A DNA stretch of 45,288 nucleotides, from the NCBI GenBank assembly GCA_963748825.1, contig CAVVKN010000015.1, forward strand, positions 1-45,288. The letters are read 5' to 3'. The DNA comes from Methanotrichaceae archaeon (GTDB lineage: Archaea > Halobacteriota > Methanosarcinia > Methanotrichales > Methanotrichaceae). A program made the position numbers and the translations under genes. The notes beneath the pieces were generated by a model that had not been told where the DNA came from, made no database searches, and saw only the letters and a list, made by a program, of their open reading frames with translations. Shown piece by piece: positions 3,567 to 31,648 of this stretch; the first letter of the stretch is position 1, and every line of letters starts with the position of its first letter.

Positions 3567-3578
3567 TTGCTAAGCTTC

Positions 3579-9790: not shown

Positions 9791-10119
9791 GTCTGGGCCT
9801 CTACCGCTTCTGCCGCCTGCGGGGTTGATCTCTTATCTCGTACCGTCATTTTAAAGGCCTTCATGGGACAGAAATTAACGCACATGCCGCAAAAGGCGCA
9901 GGCATCCAGATCGATGAGCACGGGCGGCGCGTCCAGGCCCTTGGCAATCTCCTGCAATGGCCCCTCCTGCAGGGCTTTTTTCGGGCAGAGAGCCACACAG
10001 ATAGAGCAACCGGCGCACTTTTTGTAATCGTAATCGAGGATAATCTCCCTCTCTTTGGTCTTCTGCTTGGCCAGAATGTGAGTGCCTTCTGCATCCATGT
10101 CTTTCTCAATTTCCATCAT
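9787..10119 (-). CDS. 2x[4Fe-4S] ferredoxin (FwdF N-terminus-like)
   Basis: CAGCSICVALCP and CAFCGMCVNFCP; ATGA overlaps on both sides. Confidence 0.85.
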   Translation of the reverse strand: MMEIEKDMDAEGTHILAKQKTKEREIILDYDYKKCAGCSICVALCPKKALQEGPLQEIAKGLDAPPVLIDLDACAFCGMCVNFCPMKAFKMTVRDKRSTPQAAEAVEAQT

Positions 10120-12494
10120 GGAAGTGCAGCCTCCCCATTCTTCTCCTCCGCCCTTTCCTTTTTCAGCTCCGTTCCAATGGGGCCCATGGCCTTCAGCTCG
10201 CCTATGAAATCCCTGAGATCCTTTGCGTAAATCTCACCCTCGCTGGCCGCACACCAGACGATCTTGACTCTTCCCGGATCTAGGCCAATCTTCTCCAGAA
10301 CGCCTTTGAGCACATTCACCCTTTGCAGTGCCTGATAGTTGCCATCCCTGTAGTGGCATTCACCTATGCGACAGCCTGCTACCAGCACTCCATCGGCGCC
10401 TCGCCGCAAGGCTTCCAGGATGAAGCTTGGGTCCACCCGTGCCGAGCACATCACCCGGATGTTGCGAGCGTTGGTCGGGTACTGGATGCGCGAGGTTCCG
10501 GCAAGATCTGCCGCTCCGTAGCTACACCAGTTGCAAAGGAAGGCCACAATGAGGGGAAACTCTCTCTTCTCCTCCGTGGCAGCCCGTACCTGGGCCAGGA
10601 TCTGCTCATCGGAGAAGAAGCGCATGTTGATGGCGTCAACTGGACAGGCGGCGGCACATGAGCCGCAACCTTTGCAGGCCGCCTCGTCCACATAGGCCGG
10701 GCTTTTCACAGCTATCGCTTTCTGGGGACAGACATCGACGCACAGCTTGCATTTGATGCAGAGATCTGGGTCCACATAGGCCGAGGTGGGCTCCAGCTCC
10801 AGCACCCCTTTATGCAGGAGCTTAATGGCTTTGGCTGCCGCAGCACTGCCCTGGGCGATGGAGATGGGAATCTCCTTGGGACCGGAGGCGCAACCGGCGA
10901 TGAAGACTCCGTCGATGTGCGCCTCCACGGGCCTCATCTTGGGATGGGCGATCTCAAAGAACCTGTCCGGCCTTCGGGAGAGGCCGAGCAGATTGCCTAA
11001 AACATCGGCCTTGCTGTCCGGCTCTAATCCTACGGAGAGGACGGCCAGATCATGCTTCACCCTCTTGATCTCGCCGGTCTGCGTGTCCTCAAAGATCAGG
11101 AAGAGTTCGCCGTCCACCTCATCAATGCGGGAGACGCGGGCACGCACAAAGTTGACGCCCAGCTTCTGAGCCCGCACATAGAACTCTTCATATCCTTCTC
11201 CGCAGGCCCTGATGTCGATATAGTAAATGGTGATATCAGTATCTGGATACTTTTCCTTGACCAGTTGCGCATTCTTGAGCGAGGCCATGCAGCAGATGCG
11301 AGAGCAGTAGAGGTTTCCGACCGTCGAGTCGCGCGAGCCGACGCACTGCAGGAAGCCTATTGACTTGGCAATCTTGCCTGTGCTGGGACGCACCACCTCG
11401 CCCTTGGTTGGCCCGGAGGCGTTGAGCATCCTCTCCATCTGCAGGGTGGTGATTACATCCCTGTACCTGCCAAAGCCGTACTCCTCCTTTCGGGTGGCAT
11501 CGAAGGGCTGCCAGCCGGTAGCCACGATGATGGCGCCCACATTCAACTTGAAATCCTGGGGCTCCTGATCCAGCTTGACGGCCTGGGCGGGACAGGCTTC
11601 CACGCAGCGGGCGCAGCCTATACAGGCTTTGGGATCGACGCAGGCTACCAGGGGCACGGCCTGGGGGTAGGGAATGTAAATGGCCTTTCTCTTGCCGATG
11701 CCAAAGTCGTACTCGCTGGGAACCTCCACCGGGCAGACGCCGGCGCACTCGCTGATGCAGCCCTTGCACAGCTTTTCGTCCACATAGCGTGCTTGGCGAA
11801 CGCCGGAGACGGTGAAGTTGCCTATGCTGCCCTCCACGCCCAGTACCTCGGCGTAGGTTATGAGAGTAATATCGGGATGGTTGTAGACCTCGGACATCTT
11901 GGGACCCAGGACGCAAATGGAGCAGTCGTTGGTGGGAAAGACGTCGGTGAGCAGAGCCATGTAGCCGCCGATGGTGGGCCGCCGCTCCACCAGATAAACA
12001 TGCAGCCCCGCATCGGCCATGTCCAGCGCCGCAGCAATGCCGGCCACGCCTCCACCCACGACCAGCACGTCTTTGCTGACGGGTATGCTCTCCGGTTCCA
12101 GCGGCTGTAGCAGCGCCGCTTTGGCCACGGCCATTGCAATGAGGTCTTTGGCCTTCTCTGTGGCCATGGCTGGCTGCTCCATGTGCACCCAGGAGCACTG
12201 CTCCCGGATGTTGGCCATCTCCAGCATGTAAGGATTCAGGCCTGCTTTGGCGATGGCCCGGCGGAAGGTGGGCTCGTGCAGGCGGGGCGAGCAGGCGGCC
12301 ACCACCACGCGATCAAGCTTAAGCTCTGCAATATCTTTCTGGATCTGCTCCTGGCCGATATCGGAGCAGGAGAACTGCAGATCGCGAGCTACGGCCACAT
12401 CGGGAAGCTTCTCGGCAAAGCTCTTCAGCTCCTCCATATTCAAGACGCCTGCGATGTTCAGGCCGCAGTGACAGACGTAAACACCAATGGGCAT
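10116..12494 (-). CDS. hdrA: Heterodisulfide reductase subunit A with fused C-terminal MvhD domain
   Basis: GVYVCHCGLNIAG, NIREQCSWVH, Rossmann GGGVAG, QCVGSRD and CSRICC. The C-terminal IVAFLCNWCSYGAADLAG...RVMCSARVDP...GC..GECHY is MvhD-like. Confidence 0.96.
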   Translation of the reverse strand: MPIGVYVCHCGLNIAGVLNMEELKSFAEKLPDVAVARDLQFSCSDIGQEQIQKDIAELKLDRVVVAACSPRLHEPTFRRAIAKAGLNPYMLEMANIREQCSWVHMEQPAMATEKAKDLIAMAVAKAALLQPLEPESIPVSKDVLVVGGGVAGIAAALDMADAGLHVYLVERRPTIGGYMALLTDVFPTNDCSICVLGPKMSEVYNHPDITLITYAEVLGVEGSIGNFTVSGVRQARYVDEKLCKGCISECAGVCPVEVPSEYDFGIGKRKAIYIPYPQAVPLVACVDPKACIGCARCVEACPAQAVKLDQEPQDFKLNVGAIIVATGWQPFDATRKEEYGFGRYRDVITTLQMERMLNASGPTKGEVVRPSTGKIAKSIGFLQCVGSRDSTVGNLYCSRICCMASLKNAQLVKEKYPDTDITIYYIDIRACGEGYEEFYVRAQKLGVNFVRARVSRIDEVDGELFLIFEDTQTGEIKRVKHDLAVLSVGLEPDSKADVLGNLLGLSRRPDRFFEIAHPKMRPVEAHIDGVFIAGCASGPKEIPISIAQGSAAAAKAIKLLHKGVLELEPTSAYVDPDLCIKCKLCVDVCPQKAIAVKSPAYVDEAACKGCGSCAAACPVDAINMRFFSDEQILAQVRAATEEKREFPLIVAFLCNWCSYGAADLAGTSRIQYPTNARNIRVMCSARVDPSFILEALRRGADGVLVAGCRIGECHYRDGNYQALQRVNVLKGVLEKIGLDPGRVKIVWCAASEGEIYAKDLRDFIGELKAMGPIGTELKKERAEEKNGEAALP

Positions 12495-14260: not shown

Positions 14261-14335
14261 TAGCGGGGAGTAGATTTGAACTACTGATCTACGGGTTATG
14301 AGCCCGTCGGGATATCCTGACTACCCTACCCCGCT
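14261..14335 (-). tRNA. Initiator tRNA-Met (CAT), no encoded CCA
   Basis: Reverse complement AGCGGGGTAGGGTAGTCAGGATATCCCGACGGGCTCATAACCCGTAGATCAGTAGTTCAAATCTACTCCCCGCTA. It has an A1-U72 pair, three G-C pairs in the anticodon stem, a CAT anticodon and a TTCAAAT T-loop. Confidence 0.95.
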
Positions 14336-15293: not shown

Positions 15294-16439
15294 ATGGATA
15301 TAGAGGATACTTTGCTCATGATTCCAGGGCCGGTCAAGGTCGCGCCTCGCGTTCTGCGCGCCCTGTCCAAGCCTATGATCAGCCACCGAAGTGGTGACTT
15401 TAGCACGATTTACAGCGACTGCTGCGGGCTCCTCAAGCAGTTCTTCGAGACCAAGAACGAGATAGTAGTAATGACCGGTAGCGGCACAGTGGGCATGGAC
15501 GCTGCGGTTGCCAGCCTCATCGGCCATGACGATAAGATTGTAACCATATCCAATGGCAAGTTCGGAGAGCGGTTCACCGAGATCGGCGAGAGATATGGCA
15601 AGGCCATTCCCCTAAAGTTCGAATGGGGCACTCCCTTCGACCTGGACAAGGTTGAGGCCGCGCTGGAGCAGGGCGCCAAGGCCGTGGCCATGGTGCATAA
15701 TGAGACCTCGGTGGGCCTCACCAATCCCGCTAAAGAGGTAGGCAAGCTGGCCAAAAAGTACGATGCAGTCTTTATCGTCGACGGCATATCCTCTATTGGC
15801 GGCAACGAGTTTCTCACCGATGAGTGGGGCATTGATATTGCCATCACCGGCTCGCAGAAGGCTCTGGCCGTGCCGCCTGGCCTGGCTGTGGTTTCCACCT
15901 CACCCAGGGCGGAGGAGCGTTTCTTGCCCAAGAGCGCCAGCTACTACTCCGACCTGAAGGCGCACCTGAAAAGCGTGCGAAAGAGCCAGCCCCAGACGCC
16001 CTTTACCCCGGCCGTGTCGCTGTTCTTCGCCATGCAGGAGTCCCTGCACATGGCAGCCGAGGAGGGCTTTGCCGCCCGCCGGGCCAGAACAGCCAAACAG
16101 GCAGAATCTGTCCGCTCCGCAGCCAAGGCGCTGGGAATCGAGCTGTTCCCCCAGGTAAATGAGCACACCCACTACTCCAATACCGTCACCGCCATGAAGA
16201 TGCCCGCGGGCGTCACGGACGACAAGCTGCGCGGCGGCATGAAAAAGCAGGGAGTAATCGTATCCGGCGGCCAGGACCTCATTAAGGGCAAGATCTTTCG
16301 CATCGGCACTATGGGCATGTGCTCTTCGGGCGACATCCTGCGAACCATCCAGACATTGGAGCTGATCCTTGCCAAAGAGGGGAAGATCGCCTCATGCGGC
16401 GCAGGAGTCGAGGCAGCGGCCAAGGTGCTGGAAAGTTGA
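15294..16439 (+). CDS. Class V PLP aminotransferase (serine-pyruvate / archaeal phosphoserine aminotransferase type)
   Basis: LMIPGP, HRS, GSGT, HNETSVG, VDGISS, TGSQKAL..PPG and FRIGTMG. Confidence 0.9.
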   Translation: MDIEDTLLMIPGPVKVAPRVLRALSKPMISHRSGDFSTIYSDCCGLLKQFFETKNEIVVMTGSGTVGMDAAVASLIGHDDKIVTISNGKFGERFTEIGERYGKAIPLKFEWGTPFDLDKVEAALEQGAKAVAMVHNETSVGLTNPAKEVGKLAKKYDAVFIVDGISSIGGNEFLTDEWGIDIAITGSQKALAVPPGLAVVSTSPRAEERFLPKSASYYSDLKAHLKSVRKSQPQTPFTPAVSLFFAMQESLHMAAEEGFAARRARTAKQAESVRSAAKALGIELFPQVNEHTHYSNTVTAMKMPAGVTDDKLRGGMKKQGVIVSGGQDLIKGKIFRIGTMGMCSSGDILRTIQTLELILAKEGKIASCGAGVEAAAKVLES

Positions 16440-16465
16440 TAAGCCTTTAAATTGCAGCTAAATCA

Positions 16466-16480
16466 TTTTTCTTTTTTTTT
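16466..16480 (+). terminator. Oligo-T archaeal terminator after the aminotransferase
   Basis: TTTTTCTTTTTTTTT about 27 bp after the stop codon. Confidence 0.55.
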
Positions 16481-16711
16481 GTGTCAAGAACTGGACATTT
16501 CCTACAGAGGATTAACCAATTTAATCTTTAATATATTTAGTTTAAAGAAAACTATCAATGAGTGAACAATAATGGACTATTATAGATTGAAGTATGCGTT
16601 GAAAATAGCAATTTAAAGAGGGCAAAAAGGCTTTATAAGTAGGTATGCATGCGGTAGAATACATTCTTGATTTCATGGGGGTCGAAGCTGTTGAAGGGAA
16701 TAAGAGCAGAA

Positions 16712-17956
16712 ATGCGCATAAAAGTATCAAATCAATGCTCATCACTATGCAAGAAAGTAGGAAGAGAGCGACTTAATCTCACACTATTGCTATTATTAGT
16801 AAGCATAATTTCTGCTTTATCCCTTGCCGCACCATGTGCGGCCCAGAGCGGCTATGAAATCAGAAGCGCTGTGGTAACTCCGGAATACGGCTATGAGGAT
16901 TTCACCTATTCCGCCCAGGTATGGATGAGCGAGGAGGCGGCCAGCAGAGTAGGCGTCCTTGCCGTCACCAAATTCAGCTTGAAGCTAAATATCTATGACG
17001 ATGGCAAGTTGATCCATTCCGAATCCTCAGACCAAACGGGCATGAGCAAAACCTCTTTCGTCTTCGGGCCCTACAGCTTCAAGGATAGATTCGCCATAGC
17101 TTCTACCAGCAATGCCACGTTTGAATTTGTCTTCTATGCAGGTGGTCAGCAGGTCGCCAAGACCCCTCGAATAAAAGGCCCCATCGTCCAGCCTCCCACA
17201 ATGACCGGTATCCAGTTTGAGAAGAATCCCTATTTCTTCCAGGGAATTGCAGTCTCAGCCGGATTCAAGGATCTGGACGGGCTGAACCCCAAGCCGACAT
17301 GCCATCTGGAGATCACAGGCCCGCTAGGGACGACTGATTCCAGGAGCTGGATAACAGCCGACGTTTCTTGCCAGGCCTCAGGAAAGAGCACATATTCCTG
17401 TACTGTGGCTGAGGATCTATCCAGTTACAGAAATGGTGGAGATTTCACTTTCAAGCTGGTCTACAACAACCTCAAGCTTGACCCCCTGACCTACGGACCC
17501 TACAACGTCTCCCTTCAGCCCTACAATCCCGCTATAGAAAAAGTCACTATTCCTAAGCTGCTGGATTATACCAACTTCACCATTCAGGCTTATGTCAAGG
17601 ACGCTGGGGCCAAGATGGTAGGAGGCACCCCGGATGGCAGCACGGCCAACCTGATAATCAACCATCCCCAAAAAGGCGAGATGGCTTATGCCTCATCTGA
17701 ACCCAAGGTGCAAGGCAGCAGCCTGGTCTACGAGTGGACCAATGATAATATTCCTGCCTTATTCAACCGGAGCGATGTGCAGCTCGCCAAGAATGCGCCC
17801 TTCCAGGCCAAAGTGGTGTACAAGAACGAAAACTGGAATTACCAGGCTGAAAAGTCCAACCTCAGCTTCAAGGTAGTGGAAGAGATTCCAAAACTGGACT
17901 CCAATATCCATCAACCGTTTACGTGCGGGCCGGCGAGAGCACCACTCAGGATATAA
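16712..17956 (+). CDS. Large secreted beta-rich repeat protein, N-terminal part (joins the next ORF)
   Basis: Signal peptide (LTLLLLLVSIISALSLAAPCAA-Q) after ATG 16712, followed by aromatic beta-strand-like domains. Same frame as 17957-20377. Confidence 0.75.
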   Translation: MRIKVSNQCSSLCKKVGRERLNLTLLLLLVSIISALSLAAPCAAQSGYEIRSAVVTPEYGYEDFTYSAQVWMSEEAASRVGVLAVTKFSLKLNIYDDGKLIHSESSDQTGMSKTSFVFGPYSFKDRFAIASTSNATFEFVFYAGGQQVAKTPRIKGPIVQPPTMTGIQFEKNPYFFQGIAVSAGFKDLDGLNPKPTCHLEITGPLGTTDSRSWITADVSCQASGKSTYSCTVAEDLSSYRNGGDFTFKLVYNNLKLDPLTYGPYNVSLQPYNPAIEKVTIPKLLDYTNFTIQAYVKDAGAKMVGGTPDGSTANLIINHPQKGEMAYASSEPKVQGSSLVYEWTNDNIPALFNRSDVQLAKNAPFQAKVVYKNENWNYQAEKSNLSFKVVEEIPKLDSNIHQPFTCGPARAPLRI

Positions 17957-20377
17957 TTGCCACAGTTACCTTCTCCAAAGGCGCTGGGAGATATGAATTT
18001 CATGCTGTCAGGCCCGGATCAGGACCTGAACGTGACGGAGAAGGGAGTGCCTCTGGGCGGTAATAGGTATCAGTACAAGTGGCAGGTTACTTTCGACGAT
18101 CGCCATATCAATAACAACTACACTTTAGCATTATCCTTTGTCCACCCAACGTTGGAAGGCGGCAGGTATGCCTTTGCGGACAAATTCATCAGAGTCTCAC
18201 CGCTTTCCGTGCAGTTTTCCCAGGGCCTTGTGTCCCCAACAACGGGCCTGTGGAATGAAAGCTACACATATTCCCTGAAGATCGATACTACTATCGTCCC
18301 TCTCGATGTCCGGCTCCAGACTTACGAACCCTGCAGCAGCGAATGGACGGATAAAGGTGCAAAGAAAGCGACGGCTGAATCATCATGGATCAACTGGACT
18401 CTTTCGCCCTTCAGCTATGAATGCAAAGAGATGCAGCAGCAGGGAGCCAAGTATCGTTTCAAGGCCAGCTTTGCTGGTAATGATTACATCTCAAAGCCCT
18501 ACGAGGGCCCAACCTTCGAAGGAGGCAAGCCCGTGCTCATCTCCCTGGACAGCGATCCCGTTGTCTATGTCTCTGAGGGCAGCGAATCTTCCAGCAGCAT
18601 TCAGGCTGTAGTGGAATATGGAGCTGGCCAGGGCCAGGCAACTCTCCGGCTGGAGGGGCCGGAAAAGAGCCTTGAGGATACAAGCCGGGGAGTTATTCTG
18701 GGCAGCAATAGATATCGATACGATTGGAGCCTGCCCTTCGAGGAGACAGACATAGGCAAGAGTTTCAATTACACTATCAGCTACAAGCACCCGAGCATTG
18801 CCACAGAGCTGCCGCTGGCTGAAAAAACGATTGCAGTTAAAGCAATATCAATCAACTTTGCCGATGCAACCGTGGCACCAGGCAAAGGCAAATGGAATGA
18901 TACCTATGTTTACTCGGTGCATGCGAGCAGCAGCGTTGAGATGAAGGTGGCACTGGAGGTCTACAATCCCTGCCGCTGGGAGTGGGTGGAGCGAGCCTCC
19001 GGCACGGCTTCGACAGGCGAGAGCCGGGTAAATCTCACGACCCAGCCCTTCCGTTATAAATGCGCCGATGCGGAAGGAAATGAGGCTAGCTACCGTTTTG
19101 TTGCCAGCTTTGCTGGAGAGAGAATTGAATCAAATATCTATTCTGGGCCCATGATCGGAGGAGGAAAACCGGAACTGGTATCGCTGGATTATGCACCGAT
19201 ACTATATGTGACTGAGTACGCCCCGGCCAATCAGGTGGTAAAGGCAATAGTGGACAGTCCTCTGGGGCCAGCTGCTGTGGCCTTGGGCATTAACGGCCCG
19301 GGGATGAACTTCACGCAGATGAACAGAGGTACCTTCCTGGGCGGGCAGAGGTACGCTTACACCTGGTCAATTCCCTTTGGCGTCGATAACGCTGGAAACC
19401 ATACCTTATCGCTGCGCTACCTGCATCCTGATGTCTCAGGTGGCGAGATCTCTTTCCCAGAGAAGAGCATGAGGGTTATGAAAGCAGAAGTAAAATATAA
19501 AGAAGAACAAATTAGATTTGATCAGGCATCTGTTACACCTGCTAACGGCTCGATCTTTACCGGATTTACTTATTGTGTAAATGTGCAGTCCGATCTGAAA
19601 AATTATGACGTGGAGCTTTTCACGCAGGAGCCTGGCTCGACCAAATGGATCTCTCAGGGTACTATTCCCCACAACGGCACATCCGAAGCCCTCTGCTGGC
19701 CGGAGGTTGTGATTGATGGATCGCATTATGGAATGGCAAAGTACAGATTTAGCAGCGGATTGTCAGCCTCGGAAATCTTCGAAGGCCCGAGCATTGAGCC
19801 GGTGAGCTTCATCAACGCCACAATAAGCCCCAGTCATGGGCCTCTTTACATAACTACTCCGCTCCTCGGTGAGATATCCCGGGTATATATGTACACGATT
19901 AATGTGCAGTTCATGAAGCCCCTGGCAGGCAACATGAAAGAGGTCCGGCTGGAGGTCTACGATCCGTCCTCTGAATCATGGCTCTATGCAGGCAGTCAGA
20001 CTTATGATGCCACCAAGACCAAGATTGTATTTAAGGTCAATTTCGCAGGTCTGCCATTCCAGGAGCCCTTCTTGGGAGAGACAAAGTACAGACTGCTGGC
20101 TTCTGGCGAGGATCTGGGTGAGTTTATTGGACCGACCATTGATGTGAATTTGAGAAATGAGCAAGCAATAGCACAGGGCAAGAATTACACCTATCAGCTT
20201 GAGGTGAGGTCAAGTCTGCCCAAGGTCAATGTTGCTCTGGCCTACACCAAGAACAATGTCAATTGGCTGCAAGGAGACAAGAGGACCTATGAATCCTCGA
20301 ACCAGGAATGGAAAGCCCTGAAGTGGGAGAAGTACCCCAAGCACTATGCTTACGAGTTTGAGGTGGATTATGCTTAA
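17957..20377 (+). CDS. Large secreted beta-rich repeat protein, C-terminal part (about 1,220 aa if joined)
   Basis: Alternating repeats of type A (GP...GVxLGxNRYxYxWxxxF...NxTxxxxYxHP) and type B (FxxAxVxPxxGxWNxxYxY...YxPCxxEW...PFxYxC...YRFxASFAG...YxGP). Confidence 0.75.
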   Translation: MPQLPSPKALGDMNFMLSGPDQDLNVTEKGVPLGGNRYQYKWQVTFDDRHINNNYTLALSFVHPTLEGGRYAFADKFIRVSPLSVQFSQGLVSPTTGLWNESYTYSLKIDTTIVPLDVRLQTYEPCSSEWTDKGAKKATAESSWINWTLSPFSYECKEMQQQGAKYRFKASFAGNDYISKPYEGPTFEGGKPVLISLDSDPVVYVSEGSESSSSIQAVVEYGAGQGQATLRLEGPEKSLEDTSRGVILGSNRYRYDWSLPFEETDIGKSFNYTISYKHPSIATELPLAEKTIAVKAISINFADATVAPGKGKWNDTYVYSVHASSSVEMKVALEVYNPCRWEWVERASGTASTGESRVNLTTQPFRYKCADAEGNEASYRFVASFAGERIESNIYSGPMIGGGKPELVSLDYAPILYVTEYAPANQVVKAIVDSPLGPAAVALGINGPGMNFTQMNRGTFLGGQRYAYTWSIPFGVDNAGNHTLSLRYLHPDVSGGEISFPEKSMRVMKAEVKYKEEQIRFDQASVTPANGSIFTGFTYCVNVQSDLKNYDVELFTQEPGSTKWISQGTIPHNGTSEALCWPEVVIDGSHYGMAKYRFSSGLSASEIFEGPSIEPVSFINATISPSHGPLYITTPLLGEISRVYMYTINVQFMKPLAGNMKEVRLEVYDPSSESWLYAGSQTYDATKTKIVFKVNFAGLPFQEPFLGETKYRLLASGEDLGEFIGPTIDVNLRNEQAIAQGKNYTYQLEVRSSLPKVNVALAYTKNNVNWLQGDKRTYESSNQEWKALKWEKYPKHYAYEFEVDYA

Positions 20378-21929
20378 AGGGCTGACTGCTGCTCTCCTGG
20401 CATTGTTGCTCATTGCAGGCATATCTCAAGCGGGAGAGGTTCTGGGCGGAGGCGATTCGAGCGGAGGGGGTGACAGTGGGACTCCTTCCGTCTCATCAGG
20501 TGGTGGCGGAGGCGGCAGCAAGCAGGTCAATATCGATAGTCTGCTAAAAACCATTCAGGATGGAAAGAAGAGCAAGCCTGCCAAGTTCGAGGAACTCCGG
20601 ACCTTATTGTGGAAGGATCCAATCACAAGCGAAGAATACCGAATGCCTACTGTGCTCATGTACTACAACGGAAACAATACCACAGTCAGTCGCAACCAGC
20701 CTCTGGAGATCATAACGGTTGCCACCAATAATAATCCCCTGGAGATGCGCCGCATGCTCGATCTTTATCTGGAGGTAAAGGAGCCTGGTTCGGATAAGTA
20801 CGAGCGCATCAACTCCTGGCCGGAGAAGATTCAGACCAACGAGTATGATGAGAATACCAATACAACCCATAGAATCTGGGGAATGCTGCCCTCCTTTTCC
20901 TACCTCAAGGGTGTGGGTGTAGTAAAGGTGCGGGCAAATGTGAGCGACGGTGTCAATAAATGGAGCACTGTCAGCTACTCCGGAATGAAGCCTCCCTATT
21001 ACGGCGAGTTGGTCTTCAATGTAACCAACAGCCTTCCGGTCATGAGCGACTTCGATGTAATCCCGGGGGGCCTCGTGAGGTATAACGATCCCATCGAGTA
21101 TAAGGCTAGTATTGCTGATGCAGATGGAGATTTGCTCAATGTAACACTGCACATCCTTGATGAGAATGGTGTTGAGCTGAAGAATGAAACACTGAACGTG
21201 AAGCCTGGTGCAGTCAGCTTCAAGGCTAACGAATATGGATTCTTCAAAGAGGCTGATGCAGGCAAGAACTTTACCTACTACTACAGTTATGATGATGGGA
21301 TTGATTTTATCAGCAAAGAACCTGCAGATGCGTTGAACGGACCCAATATCCGGAAAGGTCCAAAGCTCTCCGTGGATAAGCTGGGCTTTTCCTCTACCAG
21401 CGAGAATTACTACTGGTGGGAGAAGTACGGATTCAATCTGAGAGCAAAGAATCTGAACCCTGAAAAGTACGACGTAGCCTTTACTCTGAGCACCAGGACC
21501 GGCAAGAATGAATGGAATACAGTGGAGACGAAGACGGTCAGAATTGGACCAGATCCCGTCGAGGTGACCTTCAATAACACCAAACCTTTCCAGGTTACCG
21601 ACGCGGGCGAGACCTTTTATTACAGAGTTAAGTACTCGGAATATGATCAGAGCGGCAAGGATGCCATGGAGCAGACAGGAACTCACATCAATGCCAAGAT
21701 CGTGCCCTACAGCATCTACAATCCTGTAATGGTCATGAATTTAGTACCAATGCTCATCCTGATATTATTAGGAAGCTTTTTCATGGAAAGAAAGCTCAAA
21801 AAAGGAATTGAGGCTCATGAAAGCGCATTAGGTAAAAACGGGGACAGGAAGAACAATAAACAAGAACGCCGGGGCAAATCAGATGGAAGCTTTGCCGGCA
21901 AAGTTCTCAAAATGCTGAGGAGGGGCTAG
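20370..21929 (+). CDS. Secreted, C-terminally membrane-anchored surface protein
   Basis: GAGGTGG SD before ATG 20370, which overlaps the previous stop. Signal peptide MLKGLTAALLALLLIAGISQA, Gly/Ser linker, Ig-like beta domains, TM segment LVPMLILILLGSFFM and a basic cytoplasmic tail. Confidence 0.8.
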   Translation: MLKGLTAALLALLLIAGISQAGEVLGGGDSSGGGDSGTPSVSSGGGGGGSKQVNIDSLLKTIQDGKKSKPAKFEELRTLLWKDPITSEEYRMPTVLMYYNGNNTTVSRNQPLEIITVATNNNPLEMRRMLDLYLEVKEPGSDKYERINSWPEKIQTNEYDENTNTTHRIWGMLPSFSYLKGVGVVKVRANVSDGVNKWSTVSYSGMKPPYYGELVFNVTNSLPVMSDFDVIPGGLVRYNDPIEYKASIADADGDLLNVTLHILDENGVELKNETLNVKPGAVSFKANEYGFFKEADAGKNFTYYYSYDDGIDFISKEPADALNGPNIRKGPKLSVDKLGFSSTSENYYWWEKYGFNLRAKNLNPEKYDVAFTLSTRTGKNEWNTVETKTVRIGPDPVEVTFNNTKPFQVTDAGETFYYRVKYSEYDQSGKDAMEQTGTHINAKIVPYSIYNPVMVMNLVPMLILILLGSFFMERKLKKGIEAHESALGKNGDRKNNKQERRGKSDGSFAGKVLKMLRRG

Positions 21930-21931
21930 GA

Positions 21932-22576
21932 ATGCCCATAGATATCTCAACTGTAATGAATAGCCTATTTCCCGCAGGCACATTGCTCCTGGCATTATTG
22001 CTGATTTTTGCAGCAATTTTGCACGTCAATAACTTAAATAGGGTCCATAAGCTTATGGCCGTCCTGCAGCATAAAAAGGAAGTCTCTAAGGCAATTTTTT
22101 ACAAAGAGATGACGGTCTCGCAAGGCTCAAACTTCACAGCCCTGGCCCTGGCAGCGTGGATTATGCTCTTTGTAGCCGTTGCTTATCTTTACCTGCTGGT
22201 TCCAACCATCCTTCCCTTCAGCTACATGGATATAGCTGAATTGGCCTCCAGTACCTTGGGATTTGCCATTTTTGGCATTCTTGTGGCCTGTCTTGCGGGG
22301 GCAATATATCTCTTTCTCGACAAGCTTCCCCAAGATCATAGAGATTTAAGGCTAATGGAATTGTATAGCTTTTATTCCATATCCAAAACCATGAAGAAGA
22401 TGATCAGCATGACAGTTATTGCCTTATGCATCTCAGTATTGCTATCAGCCTATATCGGCACAATTTTTCCGGCTCATTCGCAGCCTGCCGAGCTTTTGAG
22501 CCTGATGCTTTTGGTTGTATCGGCCGGCGTACTTGTCATGCCGATTTATAAGGAAGCCTGGGAGGCGAGAAGATGA
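21932..22576 (+). CDS. Polytopic membrane protein (about 5 TM), unknown function
   Basis: Five hydrophobic stretches; 2-bp gap upstream and ATGA overlap downstream. Confidence 0.8.
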   Translation: MPIDISTVMNSLFPAGTLLLALLLIFAAILHVNNLNRVHKLMAVLQHKKEVSKAIFYKEMTVSQGSNFTALALAAWIMLFVAVAYLYLLVPTILPFSYMDIAELASSTLGFAIFGILVACLAGAIYLFLDKLPQDHRDLRLMELYSFYSISKTMKKMISMTVIALCISVLLSAYIGTIFPAHSQPAELLSLMLLVVSAGVLVMPIYKEAWEARR

Positions 22577-24252
22577 GACTGTGCATTGTCGGAATTGGTG
22601 GAGCTGGGGGCAAAATCACCCAGGAGTTTCTAGGAAACGAGGATCTGGATTTTCAGCTTCTCTCCCGCATAACTGATGCGCAATATATCTCTCCCGGCAT
22701 GATACAGGGCATTTGGCTTGAAGCCGATAAGAACGATGCTAAGAACATTCAGCATTTCTTCGGAGATCTGAATGAGGGGTGCTACCCCTGCTTTTACATT
22801 CCACATGATGTTGTAGCCGATGGCTGCGAGGTTCATAGAATAGTCCGGGAAAAATATGGTTACGACGTAAAGAAGCAGGGTTTTGTAAGAGACGCCCAAT
22901 ATCTCAAGGCCATATTTGAAATTTTTGATACGGATAAAGAGATCCAGGTAATCGTAGCCAAGACCATGAATAAAGAGATGATCGAATCGGTGGGAGGAAA
23001 TGGGGCCAATAGCAGCGCATCATTCAGCCAGGCTCCCAATCCAATCTTCGATAGCGCCTGGAATGTCATAAGAAACTTCACAACTCTAGGAGATGGAGAG
23101 TGCGACGGTATCCTCTTTGTGGTATCCTTTGGCGGGGGAACTGGAACCGGATTCATCAATCCGATCATCAATCATATCAGAAATGAAGGCAAGGCGGATT
23201 ACCCTGTTTTTGCCTTGGGCATATTGACTGAATTAGGCGATTACGCCGATAAGGCTCAGTTCTCAAAGGAGGGCAGAAGGAACCTGGCGGCAATAAGCGC
23301 CATTTACGATCTTCTTACTAAAGGCAGTGGAGCCAATGGAGTTATAATCATCGACAATCAGATCCTACTTGATAGATTTGGAAATGATTACCCTTCTGCT
23401 AACAGGTTCATTCATAAGATGATGCAGCCCATGGTGGCGGCGCGAGACTATCCCGATGAGATCCCGCCCAGCCAGGCTATAGCACAGCACTCATCCGGCG
23501 GCCTTTCCAGGCCACCTATATTTGTGCCACTCTTTGCCTCGCTGCCGAGGAGCACCAATCCCGAGGAGGCGCTTATCAAGAAAGCGCTGAGCGAAGAGGG
23601 AAAGCTCTTTGGCTGCTCGCCGGAACATGCGGATTTTGCCTTCGTCTTCTGTCGGGGTTTCATTGATTCCGAGAAGATAAGAGAGATTCTATCCAGGGAG
23701 ACGAGCATTCCGCCGGAAAGGATATGGCCGATGAGGAAGATGGGTGAGGGAAATAATGAGATCTTGATTCTGCTGAGAAATCCCTATGGCGGCGATCCCA
23801 AGGCCTACCTGAAGGAGGGTACGCTGGAAAATAGATTTTGCAAGGTGATCACTATGGCTTTGCAATACATAAGCCAGCATCCTGAAGATCTGTTTTATGA
23901 AGGAAAGCAAGAAGAAAAAAGCAAAAAAGATGGCAAACCGGCAGAGCAGGTCAGGCTGACAGAGGCCTCCAAGGAAGCTCTTAAGATGTTCTTCTTTGGG
24001 CCTGAGGGCATGGGCAAAGACGGTTTTGGCAAGACGAGCGGCTTTGCCTTTGAGCTGAAGGAGGCTAGAAAAAGGTTGAGGGATGGAGAGAAACCATTCT
24101 TCCGCAATCCTTTGAGGATATTCTATAAGGACGTCACGGTTGAGGGAGAAAATAAAAGCAAGGGCACCGAACCGAATAACGATGAGATTGCCAAAGCTGT
24201 TGACAAGAGGATTAAAGAGCTGATCAAACAGGGACTGATAAAGGGATCGTGA
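22573..24252 (+). CDS. Divergent tubulin/FtsZ-superfamily protein (CetZ-like) with insertions and C-terminal extension
   Basis: T1 loop IVGIGGAGGKI, tubulin signature SFGGGTGTG and IIIDN; no recognisable NxDxxD/E T7 loop. Confidence 0.88.
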   Translation: MRLCIVGIGGAGGKITQEFLGNEDLDFQLLSRITDAQYISPGMIQGIWLEADKNDAKNIQHFFGDLNEGCYPCFYIPHDVVADGCEVHRIVREKYGYDVKKQGFVRDAQYLKAIFEIFDTDKEIQVIVAKTMNKEMIESVGGNGANSSASFSQAPNPIFDSAWNVIRNFTTLGDGECDGILFVVSFGGGTGTGFINPIINHIRNEGKADYPVFALGILTELGDYADKAQFSKEGRRNLAAISAIYDLLTKGSGANGVIIIDNQILLDRFGNDYPSANRFIHKMMQPMVAARDYPDEIPPSQAIAQHSSGGLSRPPIFVPLFASLPRSTNPEEALIKKALSEEGKLFGCSPEHADFAFVFCRGFIDSEKIREILSRETSIPPERIWPMRKMGEGNNEILILLRNPYGGDPKAYLKEGTLENRFCKVITMALQYISQHPEDLFYEGKQEEKSKKDGKPAEQVRLTEASKEALKMFFFGPEGMGKDGFGKTSGFAFELKEARKRLRDGEKPFFRNPLRIFYKDVTVEGENKSKGTEPNNDEIAKAVDKRIKELIKQGLIKGS

Positions 24253-24564
24253 GGTATGGCGCACTACGGCGAGGCCGAAGTCGCAAGGAGTTGTCACCGG
24301 TCCGCCCATCATTTCTTCTTTTTTTCGAATATTTTCGCCCAAAAACAATAAATATGATCGTTACATCCTCGTTCATGTTAATGTTTCCATGCGGTGAATG
24401 CAAGTGGCCGATGGCAGGCGCGATTTTCCAGGTATTTTATCGATCTTCCGCCAAATCGAGCCAAACTGAATTCACAATGTCCTTAATGAGTTCTCTGGCT
24501 AGATAATGACAAGCTCTAAATATTTAGCCGATGAAAGAGCAGAAGATATTTCGGGGGTTAAATC

Positions 24565-25146
24565 ATGCAGAGTGAGTTCAAGAATTTCGCATTATTGGTA
24601 TTGGCGGCAATGGCGGCTTTCTCGATGGCAGCATTCGTAATGACAGACACCGCCCTTTGCGAGGATTGGAATAGCTACAGTCCGGAGCATGCCGTTGGCT
24701 CGGGAGATGACGACTGGTGGACGGCATATCCCGATCAGCATGAAAACTCAGGCATGGCGGTCGAACATCTTGACTGGGTTCTGAAAGCTCTCAAGGAGAA
24801 GCCTGTGCTCATCCTGATTCATAGCAGCAACTGCGTACCCTGTCTGATCCAGACGCCAAGAATTAAAGCGGCTGCGGAGAGCTTTAGCGGCGATCTCGAA
24901 TACTACGATATGCTGGCAGAAGGAAGCGGCTATGAAAAGGCAATTGGCGTCCTGGATGTCTATAATCCGGCCGGTGGAGCACAGTATGTTCCAACGACAA
25001 TCTTCATCACCCTCGCAAAGGGCCCGGATGGAACCGTTGATGTAGCCTGGCATAGTGAGATTGATGCCATGAGCCAGGAAAAGATCGATGCTTATGTAAA
25101 GGACTCCATCTACTACTACGAGCAGAATAGAGCTGCATGGATCTGA
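24565..25146 (+). CDS. Exported thioredoxin-fold protein
   Basis: Signal/anchor helix, KPVLILIHSSNCVPC (CxxC) and YVPT cis-Pro motif. Confidence 0.8.
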   Translation: MQSEFKNFALLVLAAMAAFSMAAFVMTDTALCEDWNSYSPEHAVGSGDDDWWTAYPDQHENSGMAVEHLDWVLKALKEKPVLILIHSSNCVPCLIQTPRIKAAAESFSGDLEYYDMLAEGSGYEKAIGVLDVYNPAGGAQYVPTTIFITLAKGPDGTVDVAWHSEIDAMSQEKIDAYVKDSIYYYEQNRAAWI

Positions 25147-26549
25147 GTGTGATATCAATAATTGCCAATACCTACAAAATTAAGCTGCAATCGGCAGCTT
25201 TGATCTTCCTTTTCGTCCTGGCTGCCGTTTCCCTCTTTTCCAGTCCTGTCTTTGCCAGCGACGCCATCCAGGCCCCGCAGTTCACTGCGGTAGGTGTGGA
25301 CGGTAAAAACTTCTCTCTTTCCGACTTTCAGGGCTCGCCCCTTATCTTGCATATCACCAACATCGAGATCCCTTTATGCGTTGAATGCGAAGAGTCCCTG
25401 AAAGGACAGGTAGAGGAGCTGGCAAAACTCAAGACCATGGACCCCGGTGTCCAGATAGCCACATTGAACCTTAGGAAGAATCCCTACTCTCGGGACGGCA
25501 AGTCACTGGCGGAGAAGTGGTGGAAGGTTAATATCACCTGGCCCTGGGCGGAGGATATAGAGCCTTACACTATCGCCAGCAAATACCTCGACTACTGGAA
25601 TGTAAGAGGCGGCTCCTCTAACCCGACACTCCTTCTCATCGACAAAGAGGGCAATATCGCCGGAGTCTATCACGTCTACCGGGTGGGCGAGGGCGTGTTA
25701 GACGGCGTGCAGAGTGCCGAGAAGCTTTACCAGAAGCTGCAAGATGTGGGCGGTTCATCGTGGAAGGGCCTGGAAGGAGAGGTCTTCAGGCAGGAGGTGT
25801 CGGCATTCGGCATGTTCTTGCTGGGCATACTGACATCGCTTGCCCCCTGCTCCATAGCTCTTATGATCGCCGTATTCTCCTATGTCATGACCATAAGGAA
25901 GAAGGATGAATATCTGAGAAAGAGCGTCTCTACCTCACGAGAGGGCTTCATGATAGGCATTGCTTTCACCTTGGGCATGGGCGTCGTCTTCTTTGTGCTG
26001 GGGCTGTTCATCTCTCAGGTGGGCCTGTTCATAAGAGACTCCAGGATCTTCGACCTGATGGCCGGCCTGATCATGATCCTTCTGGGAATCAGCAACATCA
26101 AGCCCCTGGATGAGATCTTAGAGCCCGTGACATCCCTAATTCGGCCCAATCGAGGAGAGTATTGTGAAACTAAGAAGGGCCTGCTGCAAAGGTCGGTGGA
26201 GACCTCCATTGCTCTATTCAAGCACTCCTCCTTCATTGGCGCTTTCACCCTGGGCATCTTCTTTGCCCTGGGCTGGGCACCCTGTGCCCTTTCCATGGTT
26301 TTGCCGGTATTGATCTGGCTGGCCTCGCAAAATATCACCCCCCTGGCAGGAGGCGTGATGCTCTTCATCTTCGGAATCGGGCATGGTGTGCCCATCATTC
26401 CCATTGCTACCTTCTCTCGAGCGGTGGGGGGACGGATCGGAGAGAAATATGTCTCCATTGGGGCCTGGACGACTAAATTCTTCGGGCTGCTGGTGATAGT
26501 GGTGGGTGTGGTTTATGCGGCGAGGTATGCTGGATTCTTGCTGTGGTGA
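25137..26549 (+). CDS. ccdA: Redoxin-domain + CcdA/DsbD-type transmembrane thiol-disulfide transporter fusion
   Basis: N-terminal APQF...FSLSDFQG...CVEC redoxin domain; C-terminal TM domain with LTSLAPC and LGWAPC. Confidence 0.82.
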   Translation: MDLSVISIIANTYKIKLQSAALIFLFVLAAVSLFSSPVFASDAIQAPQFTAVGVDGKNFSLSDFQGSPLILHITNIEIPLCVECEESLKGQVEELAKLKTMDPGVQIATLNLRKNPYSRDGKSLAEKWWKVNITWPWAEDIEPYTIASKYLDYWNVRGGSSNPTLLLIDKEGNIAGVYHVYRVGEGVLDGVQSAEKLYQKLQDVGGSSWKGLEGEVFRQEVSAFGMFLLGILTSLAPCSIALMIAVFSYVMTIRKKDEYLRKSVSTSREGFMIGIAFTLGMGVVFFVLGLFISQVGLFIRDSRIFDLMAGLIMILLGISNIKPLDEILEPVTSLIRPNRGEYCETKKGLLQRSVETSIALFKHSSFIGAFTLGIFFALGWAPCALSMVLPVLIWLASQNITPLAGGVMLFIFGIGHGVPIIPIATFSRAVGGRIGEKYVSIGAWTTKFFGLLVIVVGVVYAARYAGFLLW

Positions 26550-29749: not shown

Positions 29750-31648
29750 TCAGTTCTCCTCTGCTTTCTCTTTCTGGGGCACATGGACCTCAATGGCCAG
29801 CGGCTCAGGACATGTGTAATAGCATGCTGCGCAGCCAATGCAGCCGTCGCCGGAATAGAGCACATAGTGATAGCCTCGGGAATTGAGCTCTTCGCCCATC
29901 TTCAGTACATTCGCTGGGCAAGCCTCAATACACCGCTCGCAGGCTTTGCATTCCAGGGTATTTATGAGTGGATAGGGCTTGTCTTTATCCCTTATCTCCA
30001 CCCGCCGGATCTTTCCGCTTATGGTCTTGGGCAGCTCCTCTACGAACTCGATGATTCTCGGGTACTTGTAGGGTGCAGTGACCTTCTTCACGTGGTCTTG
30101 CAGCTCCTTTTTCAGCTCCTCGGAAGCGGCATATCCTTTGGTCAGGACCACGGTTGCCTTTACCACCTGTCCCCTAATGGTGTCAGGCACTCCGGTAATG
30201 GCCACCTCCATTACAGCAGGATGAGACATGAGGGCGCTTTCCACCTCGAAGGGCCCTACCCGGTAGCCGGAGCTCTTGATCATGTCATCCGTGCGGCCTA
30301 TGAACCAGAAGAATCCGTCCTCGTCTTGCCAGGCAGTGTCTCCGGTATGGTAGTAATCATCATGCCAGGTGCTCTTGGTCTTGTCCGGATCGGAATGGTA
30401 ATCTGTGAAAAGGCCGACGGGCTTTCCCTTGTCCGTCTTGATTACAATTTCGCCCTCTTCGCCCACCTCGCATAATTTGTCGTTCTTGCCCACCAGCACG
30501 ATATCGAATCCCGGTGCAGGCTTTCCCATGGAGCCGGGCTTGGGATTCATCCAGGGATAGTTGGCAATGCAGACCACAGTCTCAGTCTGGCCAAATCCTT
30601 CCATGAGCCGCAGGCCCGTGGTCTCCAGGAAGCTCTCATACACAGATGCATTGAGCGGCTCTCCTGCGGTGACCGCATATTTGAGCTTGGAAAAGTCGTA
30701 CCTGGACATGTCGCTCTTGATCATGAACCTGAAGATGGTCGGCGGAGCGCAGAAGGTGGTCACTCCATACTTGCCCATCTCGTCCATCATCTTTCCTGCG
30801 TCAAATCGATCATAATCGTAGACAAAGACCGCTGAGCCGGCCAGCCATTGGCCATAGATCTTGCCCCAGGCGCACTTGGCCCATCCCGTATCCGCCACGG
30901 TGTAATGAAGCCCATCGTCCTCCACATTCTGCCAGTACTTGGCAGTGAGGATATGGCCCAGGGGATAGGTCTGATCGTGTTTGACTAATTTTGGGTATCC
31001 TGTCGTTCCTGAGGTGAAGTATCCCAGGAGAATGTCCTGATTTTTTGTTGCCTGCTCTCCTGTCGGGCGGGCGAAATTTGCCGAGGCCTCCTCCAGCTCC
31101 TTATTGAAATTGATCCAGCCCTCACGCTTCTGGTCAGCACTTCCTACGAGGGCTTTGACCAGGGAAATATTGCCCAGATCCTTGTGAGCGGCATCAAACT
31201 CTGCAGGCACCCCGTTCTCTGCTATGCAAATGATCATCTTCAGATCGGCCTTCTTAATGCGATAGACGAAGTCCTTGGCCTTGAGCATATGTGTGGAAGG
31301 AATGGAGATGGCCCCTATCTTGTTTAAGCCCACCATGCAGACCCAGAACTCCCAGCGGCTCTTGAGGGTTAGCATGACCGTATCCCCTTTCTGCAGTCCA
31401 TATTTAGAAAAGAGACTGGCGGCCCGATCACTCATGGTCTTCAGGTCTTTGAAGGTGATGATCTTTTCCTCTCCTTGATCATTGCACCAGACCAGGGCGC
31501 GCTTATCAGGATTTTCTGCTGCATAGGCATCAACTACATCGTAAGCAAAATTGAAGTTCTCGGGAACCAGGATCTTCAGATTTTCTTTAAAATCCTCGTA
31601 TGATTTGTAATCGACCCGAGAGACGAACCTGGACAATAATGACGACAT
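29750..31648 (-). CDS. AMP-forming acyl-CoA synthetase fused to a C-terminal 2x[4Fe-4S] ferredoxin (VorC/delta-like)
   Basis: [27 protein letters not shown] and PKTISGKI, then PYPLIN...[12 protein letters not shown]...[14 protein letters not shown]. Confidence 0.88.

Follow-up and report, generated by a model that had tools for sequence, protein, structure and literature searches.

A candidate trans-membrane module containing a divergent tubulin-superfamily protein in Methanotrichaceae

Layout of the locus

Here we describe four genes, named gA, gB, gC and gD, in a genome of the archaeal family Methanotrichaceae, and consider whether they form a trans-membrane module. The genes lie in a stretch of 45,288 nucleotides, referred to throughout as the window (GenBank assembly GCA_963748825.1, contig CAVVKN010000015.1). 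The window is contig 15 of a 25-contig, 2.88-Mb genome with a completeness of 94.9%. All four open reading frames are on the + strand and co-oriented. The first, gA (16712..20377), encodes a giant secreted repeat protein of ~1,220 amino acids and is interrupted in this assembly. Next, gB (20346..21929) encodes a type-I membrane protein of 527 residues, counted from the ATG at 20346; an alternative, internal ATG, the one used in the earlier note, is at 20370. The product of gC (21932..22576) has 214 residues, with five transmembrane segments and a predicted docking site for gD. Finally, gD (22573..24252) encodes a 559-residue divergent member of the tubulin/FtsZ superfamily, recognised by its motifs and predicted fold, that probably binds GTP.

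The junctions between these genes are tight. Thus, the gA stop codon (20375-20377) lies within gB whichever gB start is used, the gap between gB and gC is 2 nucleotides (21929/21932), and gC overlaps gD by 4 nucleotides (22573-22576). On the upstream side is an aminotransferase gene (Pfam Aminotran_5; 15294-16439, stop codon 16437-16439). It is followed by a T-tract (16465..16482, +) that is likely an archaeal terminator parting the operon from its upstream neighbours. A TATA-like box with a TTTATAA core (16631..16640, +), ~70 nucleotides 5' of the gA ATG, is a candidate promoter for the unit. Similarly, a T-tract 60 nucleotides past the gD stop codon (24312..24326, +) is the likely terminator. 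An earlier note, made from the DNA letters alone, had described co-oriented genes with tight junctions and a downstream T-tract, and the coordinates bear this out. Note that a scan with bacterial promoter and terminator models found 11 promoter sites, where 11.3 are expected, and that such models are not meaningful for an archaeon.

Contigs from metatranscriptomic libraries of four studies, derived from relatives 90-97% identical to the stretch, were aligned with the locus. Contigs of run X1 bridge gA and gB (18073-21244), gB and gC (21229-22229), and gC and gD (22366-24254). Those of run X2 bridge gA/gB and gB/gC. In three studies, RNA contigs start at 16681, 16705 and 16718 and leave 16460-16680 uncovered, which is a weak hint of a promoter. 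Runs X2, X3 and X5 cover the stretch only in part, so gaps were not interpreted. These data are consistent with expression of the operon as a unit.

Predicted outer parts encoded by gA and gB

The earlier note had proposed a secreted repeat protein of about 1,220 residues. The signal-like N-terminus and the repeats are real; the single open frame, in the window, is not. Briefly, an in-frame TAA at 17954-17956 cuts gA into 429 and 806 codons. Between ~17899 and 17987, the repeat-like reading runs on in another frame. Compared with all four aligned orthologues, gA is one base short near 17899 and, 86 nucleotides further on, one base too long near 17985-17987. An RNA-library contig of one relative is also free of both indels. 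Furthermore, the orthologues form a single frame of 1165-1386 codons in 10 of 11 loci; the eleventh has 672 codons. The pair of indels is either an assembly error or a recent, real disruption. The repeats are best seen in an intact orthologue (L008), where Smith-Waterman alignment detects three copies of ~213 residues (z 22-85 versus shuffles) and a weaker fourth. They were missed when gA was compared with itself by BLASTP. The same orthologue has 19 N-glycosylation sequons.

The gB protein has a signal-like N-terminus, one C-terminal transmembrane segment (residues 461-479) and a basic tail of ~48 residues. In order, the predicted structure (mean predicted local distance difference test score, pLDDT, 78.6) contains a signal peptide, a disordered Gly/Ser linker, a helical hairpin, three beta-sandwich domains, the transmembrane helix and the tail. 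Fold searches with the beta-sandwiches gave only generic FN3/Ig/PKD/CBM matches (Z about 10), and the ESM Atlas only weak CARDB/Big_13 leads (scores 0.77-0.83). The type-I architecture that had been proposed is confirmed here. The basic inner tail, though present in this protein, is found in no more than 8 of the 18 orthologues aligned; 10 stop a few residues past the membrane. The tail cannot, therefore, be a general anchor. Pfam and NCBIfam hold no family for gA, gB or gC, and the NCBIfam search of the operon proteins gave nothing useful. We also considered whether gB could be MspA, the major protein of the sheath. MspA is given as a 60.9 kDa protein in the available part of one source (PMC6242892) and as Mthe_1069 in that of another (PMC10470525).

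The four genes are a conserved and lineage-specific unit

Matches to gD were found in 38 of 41 Methanotrichaceae genomes, and in 33 of the 34 of high quality. In a sample of 401 genomes from the phylum, gD was present in 11 of 12 genomes of its own family and in 1 genome among the other 35 families. Three further matches in this sample, near E 1e-11, are CetZ-sized proteins. The window's genome has a single gD copy. More broadly, only 90 of 1.84 billion cluster representatives match gD at E <=0.001. The closest named relatives are from metagenome-assembled genomes labelled Methanothrix, in keeping with the earlier guess that the organism is a sheathed filamentous methanogen. The range of gC is equally narrow: 286 proteins were found, and all named ones are from Methanothrix or Methanotrichaceae. 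In five metagenome-assembled genomes annotated by NCBI, the gC and gD locus tags are adjacent.

We surveyed gene linkage, using tblastn, at 65 gD loci among GTDB species genomes. All are labelled Methanotrichaceae, or carry broader labels, bar one. The exception, a 3-kb contig labelled Gudongella, is taken to be mis-binned. Directly upstream of gD, gC was found in 62 of 65 loci; at the remaining 3, the contig ends where gD begins. Wherever a locus has upstream DNA, gB, gC and gD stand side by side. The gB gene is present in 60 of 65 loci and the C-terminal part of gA in 54. For 10 of the 11 loci where gA was missed there is no upstream DNA; the other (L040) has upstream DNA and no detectable gA. 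Of 59 loci, 55 retain the 4-nucleotide overlap of gC and gD, even where gD identity is as low as 34%. Where a genome has a second copy elsewhere, the gene order is again the same (for example L038 and L049, from one genome). Finally, one locus in a genome assigned to another family (L075; G039 contig 75, 4444-8994, minus strand) has the order gA-gB-gC-gD, with gD 32% identical. Transfer or mis-binning could account for this, or the module may have a wider range. The proposal that the four genes are a conserved unit thus holds across the family and in one genome beyond it. Separately, one contig of another family member (G413 contig 441) has tandem gD-like matches at 1433-2692 and 3224-4507, and several other genomes have two copies.

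Next, pairwise distances were compared over 31 loci with all genes. The distances of gC and gD correlate at 0.96, those of gB and gD at 0.92, and those of gB and gC at 0.93. Correlations with the flanking genes are only 0.62-0.74 (0.62 for the aminotransferase and gD). The module also evolves about twice as fast as its surroundings, with mean p-distances of 0.55 (gB), 0.57 (gC) and 0.47 (gD), compared with 0.22 and 0.27 for the flanking genes. Across the same 41 genomes, identity to the window's copy is 71-97% for CetZ and 38-86% for gD. For instance, in genome G417, of the same genus, CetZ is 97% identical and gD about 46%.

Close relatives can carry a deeply divergent cassette at an unchanged position. 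At locus L070, the flanks are 93-96% identical to the window and the downstream genes 80-90%. Identity drops along gA to 81%, then 59%, and gB, gC and gD are 35, 31 and 34% identical. The cassette breakpoint is inside gA at this locus; it is inside gB at L068. The genomes carrying L070, L068 and L067 have a single copy each. The G+C content over window positions 21000-25000 (gB-gD) is 0.45-0.49, versus 0.52-0.59 for most of the flanking 10 kb, as would fit the exchange of a cassette between lineages.

Could the neighbourhood lack functional meaning, with vertical descent alone keeping four genes together in one family? Genes for RNase HII and the aminotransferase, which are unrelated, are also syntenic across the family, as this explanation expects. 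However, given the aminotransferase distances, the partial correlation with gD is 0.19 for RNase HII and 0.94 for gC. Moreover, cassette swaps replace gB, gC and gD as a block and leave the flanks in place, and the gene order is kept by second copies elsewhere and by the locus in another family. The co-divergence, the speed of change and the swaps all exceed what shared descent would give. The controlled prediction of a gC-gD complex, described below, is a further point against it. This explanation fits the data poorly and we regard it as barely credible.

gD is a divergent member of the tubulin/FtsZ superfamily

Residues 3-266 of gD match the Pfam Tubulin family (PF00091) with an E-value of 9.5e-7 and 29.7 bits, below the gathering score of 33 bits. 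One gD relative (P0131) clears this cut-off, with 36.8 bits. The predicted structure of gD (pLDDT 78; predicted template modelling score 0.80) has a complete two-domain tubulin/FtsZ fold. The best structural matches are CetZ2 (4b45; Z 28.0, root-mean-square deviation 3.0, 316 residues aligned, 20% identity) and CetZ (3zid; Z 27.4). Then follow BtubA (Z 25.5), Asgard and eukaryotic tubulins (~25, aligned to residue 508), FtsZ (24.1), and TubZ and PhuZ (Z 20-22). All 16 chains with Z >=20 belong to the tubulin superfamily, and the first unrelated chain has Z 7.9. Similarly, a Foldseek search with the model found beta-tubulins, with E about 1e-13.

Two motifs are conspicuous: GIGGAGG at residues 7-13 (T1) and GGGTGTG at 187-193 (T4). 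Across 15 family members, down to 34% identity, residues G7, G9, G10, G12, G187, G188, T190, G191 and G193 are invariant, as is the 'DN' of the T6 region. Because these residues are invariant, gD probably binds GTP. The assignment of gD to the superfamily, proposed initially from the T1 and T4 motifs, is therefore upheld by the motifs, the sub-threshold Pfam match and the predicted fold. A C-terminal motif, GEKPFF..PLRIF, is also conserved. Note that three gD relatives (P0099, P0118 and P0128) have an extra C-terminal domain of ~90 residues, which starts with a conserved 'WNKIPGE'-like motif and has no Pfam match.

To place gD, we used a superfamily FastTree of 53 sequences and 334 columns, including 26 FtsZ/CetZ references from 10 genomes. 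The sequences are very divergent and the tree is a quick one. The gD proteins form a clade with support of 1.0. They join unannotated tubulin-like proteins from metagenomes (support 1.0), and all 26 references lie elsewhere. This tree, of the kind suggested in the earlier note, shows gD to be no canonical FtsZ or CetZ; it does not fix the exact sister. A cluster look-up of the distant tubulin-like matches returned almost no names.

A second explanation bears on this protein. Namely, gD might be an ordinary CetZ-like shape or division filament, with the three upstream envelope genes merely sharing its transcript. The two best structural matches are CetZ proteins, gD has a CetZ-like 'DNQ' motif, and the next matches of a gD profile are CetZ-like proteins (E 3e-4 in its own genome; ~1e-11 in others). 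Conversely, gD has its own clade, and the window's genome already encodes two FtsZ genes and two identical CetZ copies. The T7 loop also differs. In tubulin-superfamily filaments, acidic residues of T7 activate GTP hydrolysis in the next subunit. In a MAFFT alignment, gD has no conserved counterpart of the acidic pair found in the FtsZ and CetZ of its own genome, though this is alignment-dependent. In place of the pair, the T7 loop has a family-invariant Tyr293-Pro294. As a side observation, the twin CetZ-like genes (L003/L004; 18402-19505 and 23394-24497 of contig 23 in genome G000) are 100% identical and ~5 kb apart; they are either a recent duplication or an assembly artefact.

A predicted complex between gC and gD

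Five hydrophobic segments were found in gC, in agreement with the 5-TM protein proposed earlier. All lysine and arginine residues of the loops are in loops 31-68 and 130-156; the outer loops carry none. Loops 31-68 and 130-156 were placed in the cytoplasm for this reason. The charge pattern suggests a topology with the N-terminus outside and the C-terminus inside. Invariant gC residues include a QGSNF motif (64-68) and K155. The ESM Atlas gave no usable lead for gC.

Modelling the GTPase with the 5-TM protein had been recommended as a check. The gC-gD prediction, run with two custom-made alignments, passed. The score was 0.64 (runs 0.68, 0.64 and 0.64), compared with 0.00 for the best of three controls. 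When the tool was calibrated, 116 of 157 solved complexes attained this mark, as did 2 of 215 mismatched pairs, figures that are only roughly valid with custom alignments. The runs share >=96% of contacts and the partner pLDDT is >=79. To our knowledge, there is no solved complex of this kind, so a pass arising from the memory of the model is unlikely.

On the gC side, the predicted interface comprises residues 38-71, 149-159 and 211-214, including the invariant G65, S66, N67, F68 and K155. On the gD side, it comprises 23-43, 290-296, 326, 363-366 and 388-393, including the invariant Y293 and P294. Residues 23-43 are a family-specific insert, poorly ordered when gD is folded alone, and residues 290-296 are the T7 loop with Tyr293-Pro294. 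The C-terminal motif of gD lies outside the interface. Thus, the cytoplasmic loops of gC are predicted to dock on the T7 face of gD.

If this complex is right, gC occupies the face where the next subunit would sit in a tubulin or FtsZ protofilament. This argues against a CetZ-like filament, since the predicted contact covers the face required for protofilament growth. The conserved 4-nucleotide gC-gD overlap and the co-divergence of gC and gD point the same way. The explanation that gD is an ordinary filament fits the data poorly and we consider it quite improbable. Similarly, the cytoplasmic filament of the earlier note found no backing, given a T7 loop without the acidic pair and the same face predicted on gC.

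Fusions of gD-like domains to NTPases

Six relatives of gD, of 1,017-1,146 residues, carry the gD-like domain C-terminal to other NTPases. In P0124 and P0215, a KAP NTPase precedes the gD-like domain. P0213 and P0125 have a CHAT-like head, NB-ARC, an APAF-1-like winged-helix domain, an APAF-1 helical domain and the gD-like domain. P0214 has a Trypsin_2 head and P0130 a DUF4062 head, followed in each case by NB-ARC and the gD-like domain. CHAT was scored by Pfam in P0125 only (E 1.6e-4, below cut-off). For P0213, the name CHAT-like reflects the similarity of its N-terminus to that of P0125. The T1, T4 and T7 motifs are retained in the fused copies, but the 23-43 insert differs. Note that STAND proteins usually carry sensor repeats at the position taken here by the gD-like domain.

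In a FastTree, with supports not inspected, five fused domains form one clade nested in Methanothrix gD, and that of P0130 is nested in a Methanocrinis clade. Because the fused domains nest in two places, the domain was taken from gD at least twice. Screening metagenome contigs with the NB-ARC region of P0214 yielded a single contig, of 4.6 kb. At locus L074, a Trypco1 gene (PF19493, E 1e-18; 539-856) overlaps the start of a Trypsin_2-NB-ARC-tubulin-like fusion. The first of the two small genes before the fusion (134-469) encodes 111 residues with no Pfam family. In the available part of Kaur et al. 2020 (PMC7159879), Trypco1 beside a STAND NTPase is a signature of conflict systems. The fusions, the fast evolution of the module and the cassette swaps all go beyond the earlier note.

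Since NB-ARC/KAP fusions exist, one of them beside Trypco1, a sensing or conflict interpretation stays open. Here, the module would be a surface-sensing or conflict device, directed at a virus, an invader, or self and non-self in a filamentous organism. The gA and gB proteins would be an exposed, diversifying receptor; gC and gD would relay the signal inward or act as a GTP-dependent effector. The anatomy is the same as that of the interpretation preferred below and only the role is different. The twofold faster divergence of the module compared with its flanks, and the far faster evolution of gD than of CetZ, are as this explanation expects. So too are the deeply divergent cassette types at one locus in close relatives, and the six fusions nested at two or more places in the gD tree. 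Moreover, conflict systems with tubulin homologues, FNIII-repeat proteins and membrane proteins have been described, according to the part of the source available (PMC7159879).

Other observations count against a sensing device. The module is near-universal, mostly single-copy and fixed in position, while most defence systems are patchy. Pfam detected no STAND, NB-ARC, KAP, vWA, MoxR or GAP1-type GTPase domain in the operon, and no recognisable effector (nuclease, protease or TIR). In PADLOC-DB 2.0 (2023), no family matched gB, gC, gD, an intact gA orthologue or the downstream 193-residue protein at E <=0.01, and a search of the viral contigs in IMG/VR turned up no gD relative. Ordinary surface proteins also evolve fast and swap cassettes. 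We judge a sensing or conflict role unlikely, though it has a genuine claim to attention.

A bolder version was also considered. In this, gD would be a GTP switch that forms no filament, its polymerisation face re-used to clamp a receptor made of gA, gB and gC. The locus would be a long-lived, polymorphic surface receptor locus, serving virus contact or the recognition of self and non-self in a filamentous archaeon, and gD a bait copied at least twice into STAND/KAP immune proteins. If true, this would be, by analogy, an archaeal counterpart of the integrated decoys of plant nucleotide-binding leucine-rich repeat (NLR) proteins. We think it fairly improbable.

Neighbouring genes in the window

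Several features of the window lie outside the operon. A tRNA gene (Rfam RF00005, 63 bits; 14261-14335, -) sits between the pyrroline-5-carboxylate reductase-like and RNase HII genes and is the sole Rfam match. Further upstream, 10116-12494 (-) encodes a large HdrA-like flavoprotein that also carries, as a fusion, an MvhD/FlpD domain and ferredoxin domains. Past the T-tract that follows gD, a gene for a 193-residue protein without a family (24565-25146, +) overlaps a gene encoding a redoxin-DsbD_TM fusion (25137-26549, +). This pair is kept downstream in closer Methanothrix relatives only. Finally, 29750-31648 (-) encodes an AMP-binding enzyme with a C-terminal 4Fe-4S ferredoxin domain, and adjoins pyruvate:ferredoxin oxidoreductase-type subunits.

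Interpretation

Taken together, the comparative evidence and the controlled complex prediction support a trans-membrane module. We therefore prefer the interpretation that the four genes encode a single such module, specific to Methanotrichaceae, with a gC-gD complex at its core. On balance, we hold this to be probable, with modest confidence. In this module, secreted gA, with its many N-glycosylation sequons, and single-pass gB, with three FN3/Ig-like domains, would be the outer part. The small 5-TM protein gC would be an adaptor with which gA and gB associate. In the cytoplasm gD, a putative GTP-binding protein with a tubulin fold, would dock on two gC loops through its T7 face (the 'bottom', longitudinal face) and insert 23-43. 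Translational coupling would supply gC and gD in roughly equal amounts. Together with docking at the T7 face, this favours gD as a GTP-dependent switch docked at the membrane or, at most, a seed anchored there, and argues against a free, CetZ-like filament. The module may thus couple surface assembly to the cytoplasm, either by positioning a surface structure or by reporting on it. A role in building the envelope is favoured by near-universal presence in the family, mostly in single copy and at a fixed locus. Hence, of the inside-to-outside assembly proposed earlier, the gC-gD link is supported, by comparative evidence and the predicted complex, but the cytoplasmic filament and the role in a sheath, plug or appendage are not.

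Several points weigh against this interpretation. First, gA is broken in this assembly. Second, gD scores below the Pfam gathering threshold, and a search against the sequences of solved structures (PDB) found nothing significant (best E 0.32). Third, one genome of the same genus, 98% complete, has no gD match. Fourth, RNase HII and aminotransferase genes are upstream in 35 of 65 loci, by our own count. Synteny within the family is, alone, weak evidence, because the whole neighbourhood is syntenic by descent. Fifth, block recombination of linked genes is sufficient to yield co-divergence without contact between the products. Co-divergence therefore argues strongly that the genes form a unit, and less strongly that their products touch. 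Sixth, RNA libraries can contain DNA, and a contig spanning two genes is no proof of a single transcript. Finally, the gC-gD complex is a prediction, expressed as model confidence and obtained with custom alignments, and contacts between gA and gB and between gB and gC are putative.

If the preferred interpretation is right, it matters in several respects. Methanothrix, a major acetoclastic producer of methane, lives in a sheath, and the way in which it builds and divides there is not well understood. The module offers a lineage-specific, nearly universal gene set and so a testable entry, via defined residues, partners and alleles. For the tubulin field, gD represents a family whose longitudinal (T7) face may bind a membrane protein in place of the next subunit. 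For the immunity field, the NB-ARC/KAP fusions suggest that archaeal STAND proteins can take up host cytoskeletal-type domains. We regard gD as a new family of the tubulin superfamily; its conserved set of partners is also new, and it is predicted to put the T7 face to a new use. Literature searches, with most subscription journals outside their coverage, turned up no description of the gD family or the gene set, and none stands in the passages covered of PMC9856176, PMC9871819 and PMC2875224. This accords with the earlier view that the set is not a described system.

Comparison with known systems

Conflict systems of the STAND/Trypco1 type resemble the six fused relatives of gD, which combine NB-ARC or KAP with peptidase, CHAT-like or DUF4062 heads. 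In the part of Kaur et al. 2020 available (PMC7159879), FtsZ/tubulin domains are rare, and tubulin-containing systems with FNIII-repeat and membrane proteins are described. The operon in the window, in contrast, has no such NTPase or effector head, and is a core set at a fixed locus.

A precedent for highly divergent FtsZ-like proteins is that of FtsZl1 and FtsZl2. According to the part of Makarova and Koonin 2010 available (PMC2875224), these GTP-binding domains keep the GGGTG(S/T)G loop, have inserts between T1 and T4, and are encoded in operons predicted to act on membranes. In the same source (PMC2875224), FtsZl1 has ~1,000 residues, with a coiled coil and a helical C-terminal domain, and has vWA, GTPase and OmpA genes as neighbours; FtsZl2 is proteobacterial. 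Unlike FtsZl1, gD has 559 residues, with neither a coiled coil nor a helical C-terminal domain, and the alignment of its core to whole tubulins extends as far as residue 508. Unlike FtsZl1 loci, neither gA-gC nor the flanks include vWA, GTPase or OmpA domains, as judged by Pfam. The long metagenomic proteins beside gD in the tree may be FtsZl1-like.

FtsZ itself is anchored to the membrane by SepF, FtsA or ZipA and has a conserved C-terminal peptide. Like FtsZ, gD belongs to the tubulin superfamily, carries a conserved peptide in its C-terminal part and is predicted to have a dedicated partner that holds it at the membrane. The difference is in the contact. Thus, the predicted anchor of gD is a polytopic 5-TM protein, gC, that binds the T7 face and the N-terminal insert rather than the C-terminal peptide. 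Pfam and NCBIfam yielded no known anchor of the gC kind.

CetZ is the closest canonical family by profile search, and shares with gD the two-domain fold, the T1 and T4 motifs and the 'DNQ' motif. However, the two are only ~20% identical over the aligned structure and gD lies outside CetZ in the tree. Furthermore, gD has the N-terminal insert at residues 23-43, further inserts and a C-terminal extension of ~150 residues, lacks a conserved T7 acidic pair, and evolves much faster. For cetZ of Methanosarcinales, the available part of Brown and Duggin 2023 (PMC9856176) reports no conserved envelope partners. By contrast, gD is fixed in an operon with genes for membrane and surface proteins.

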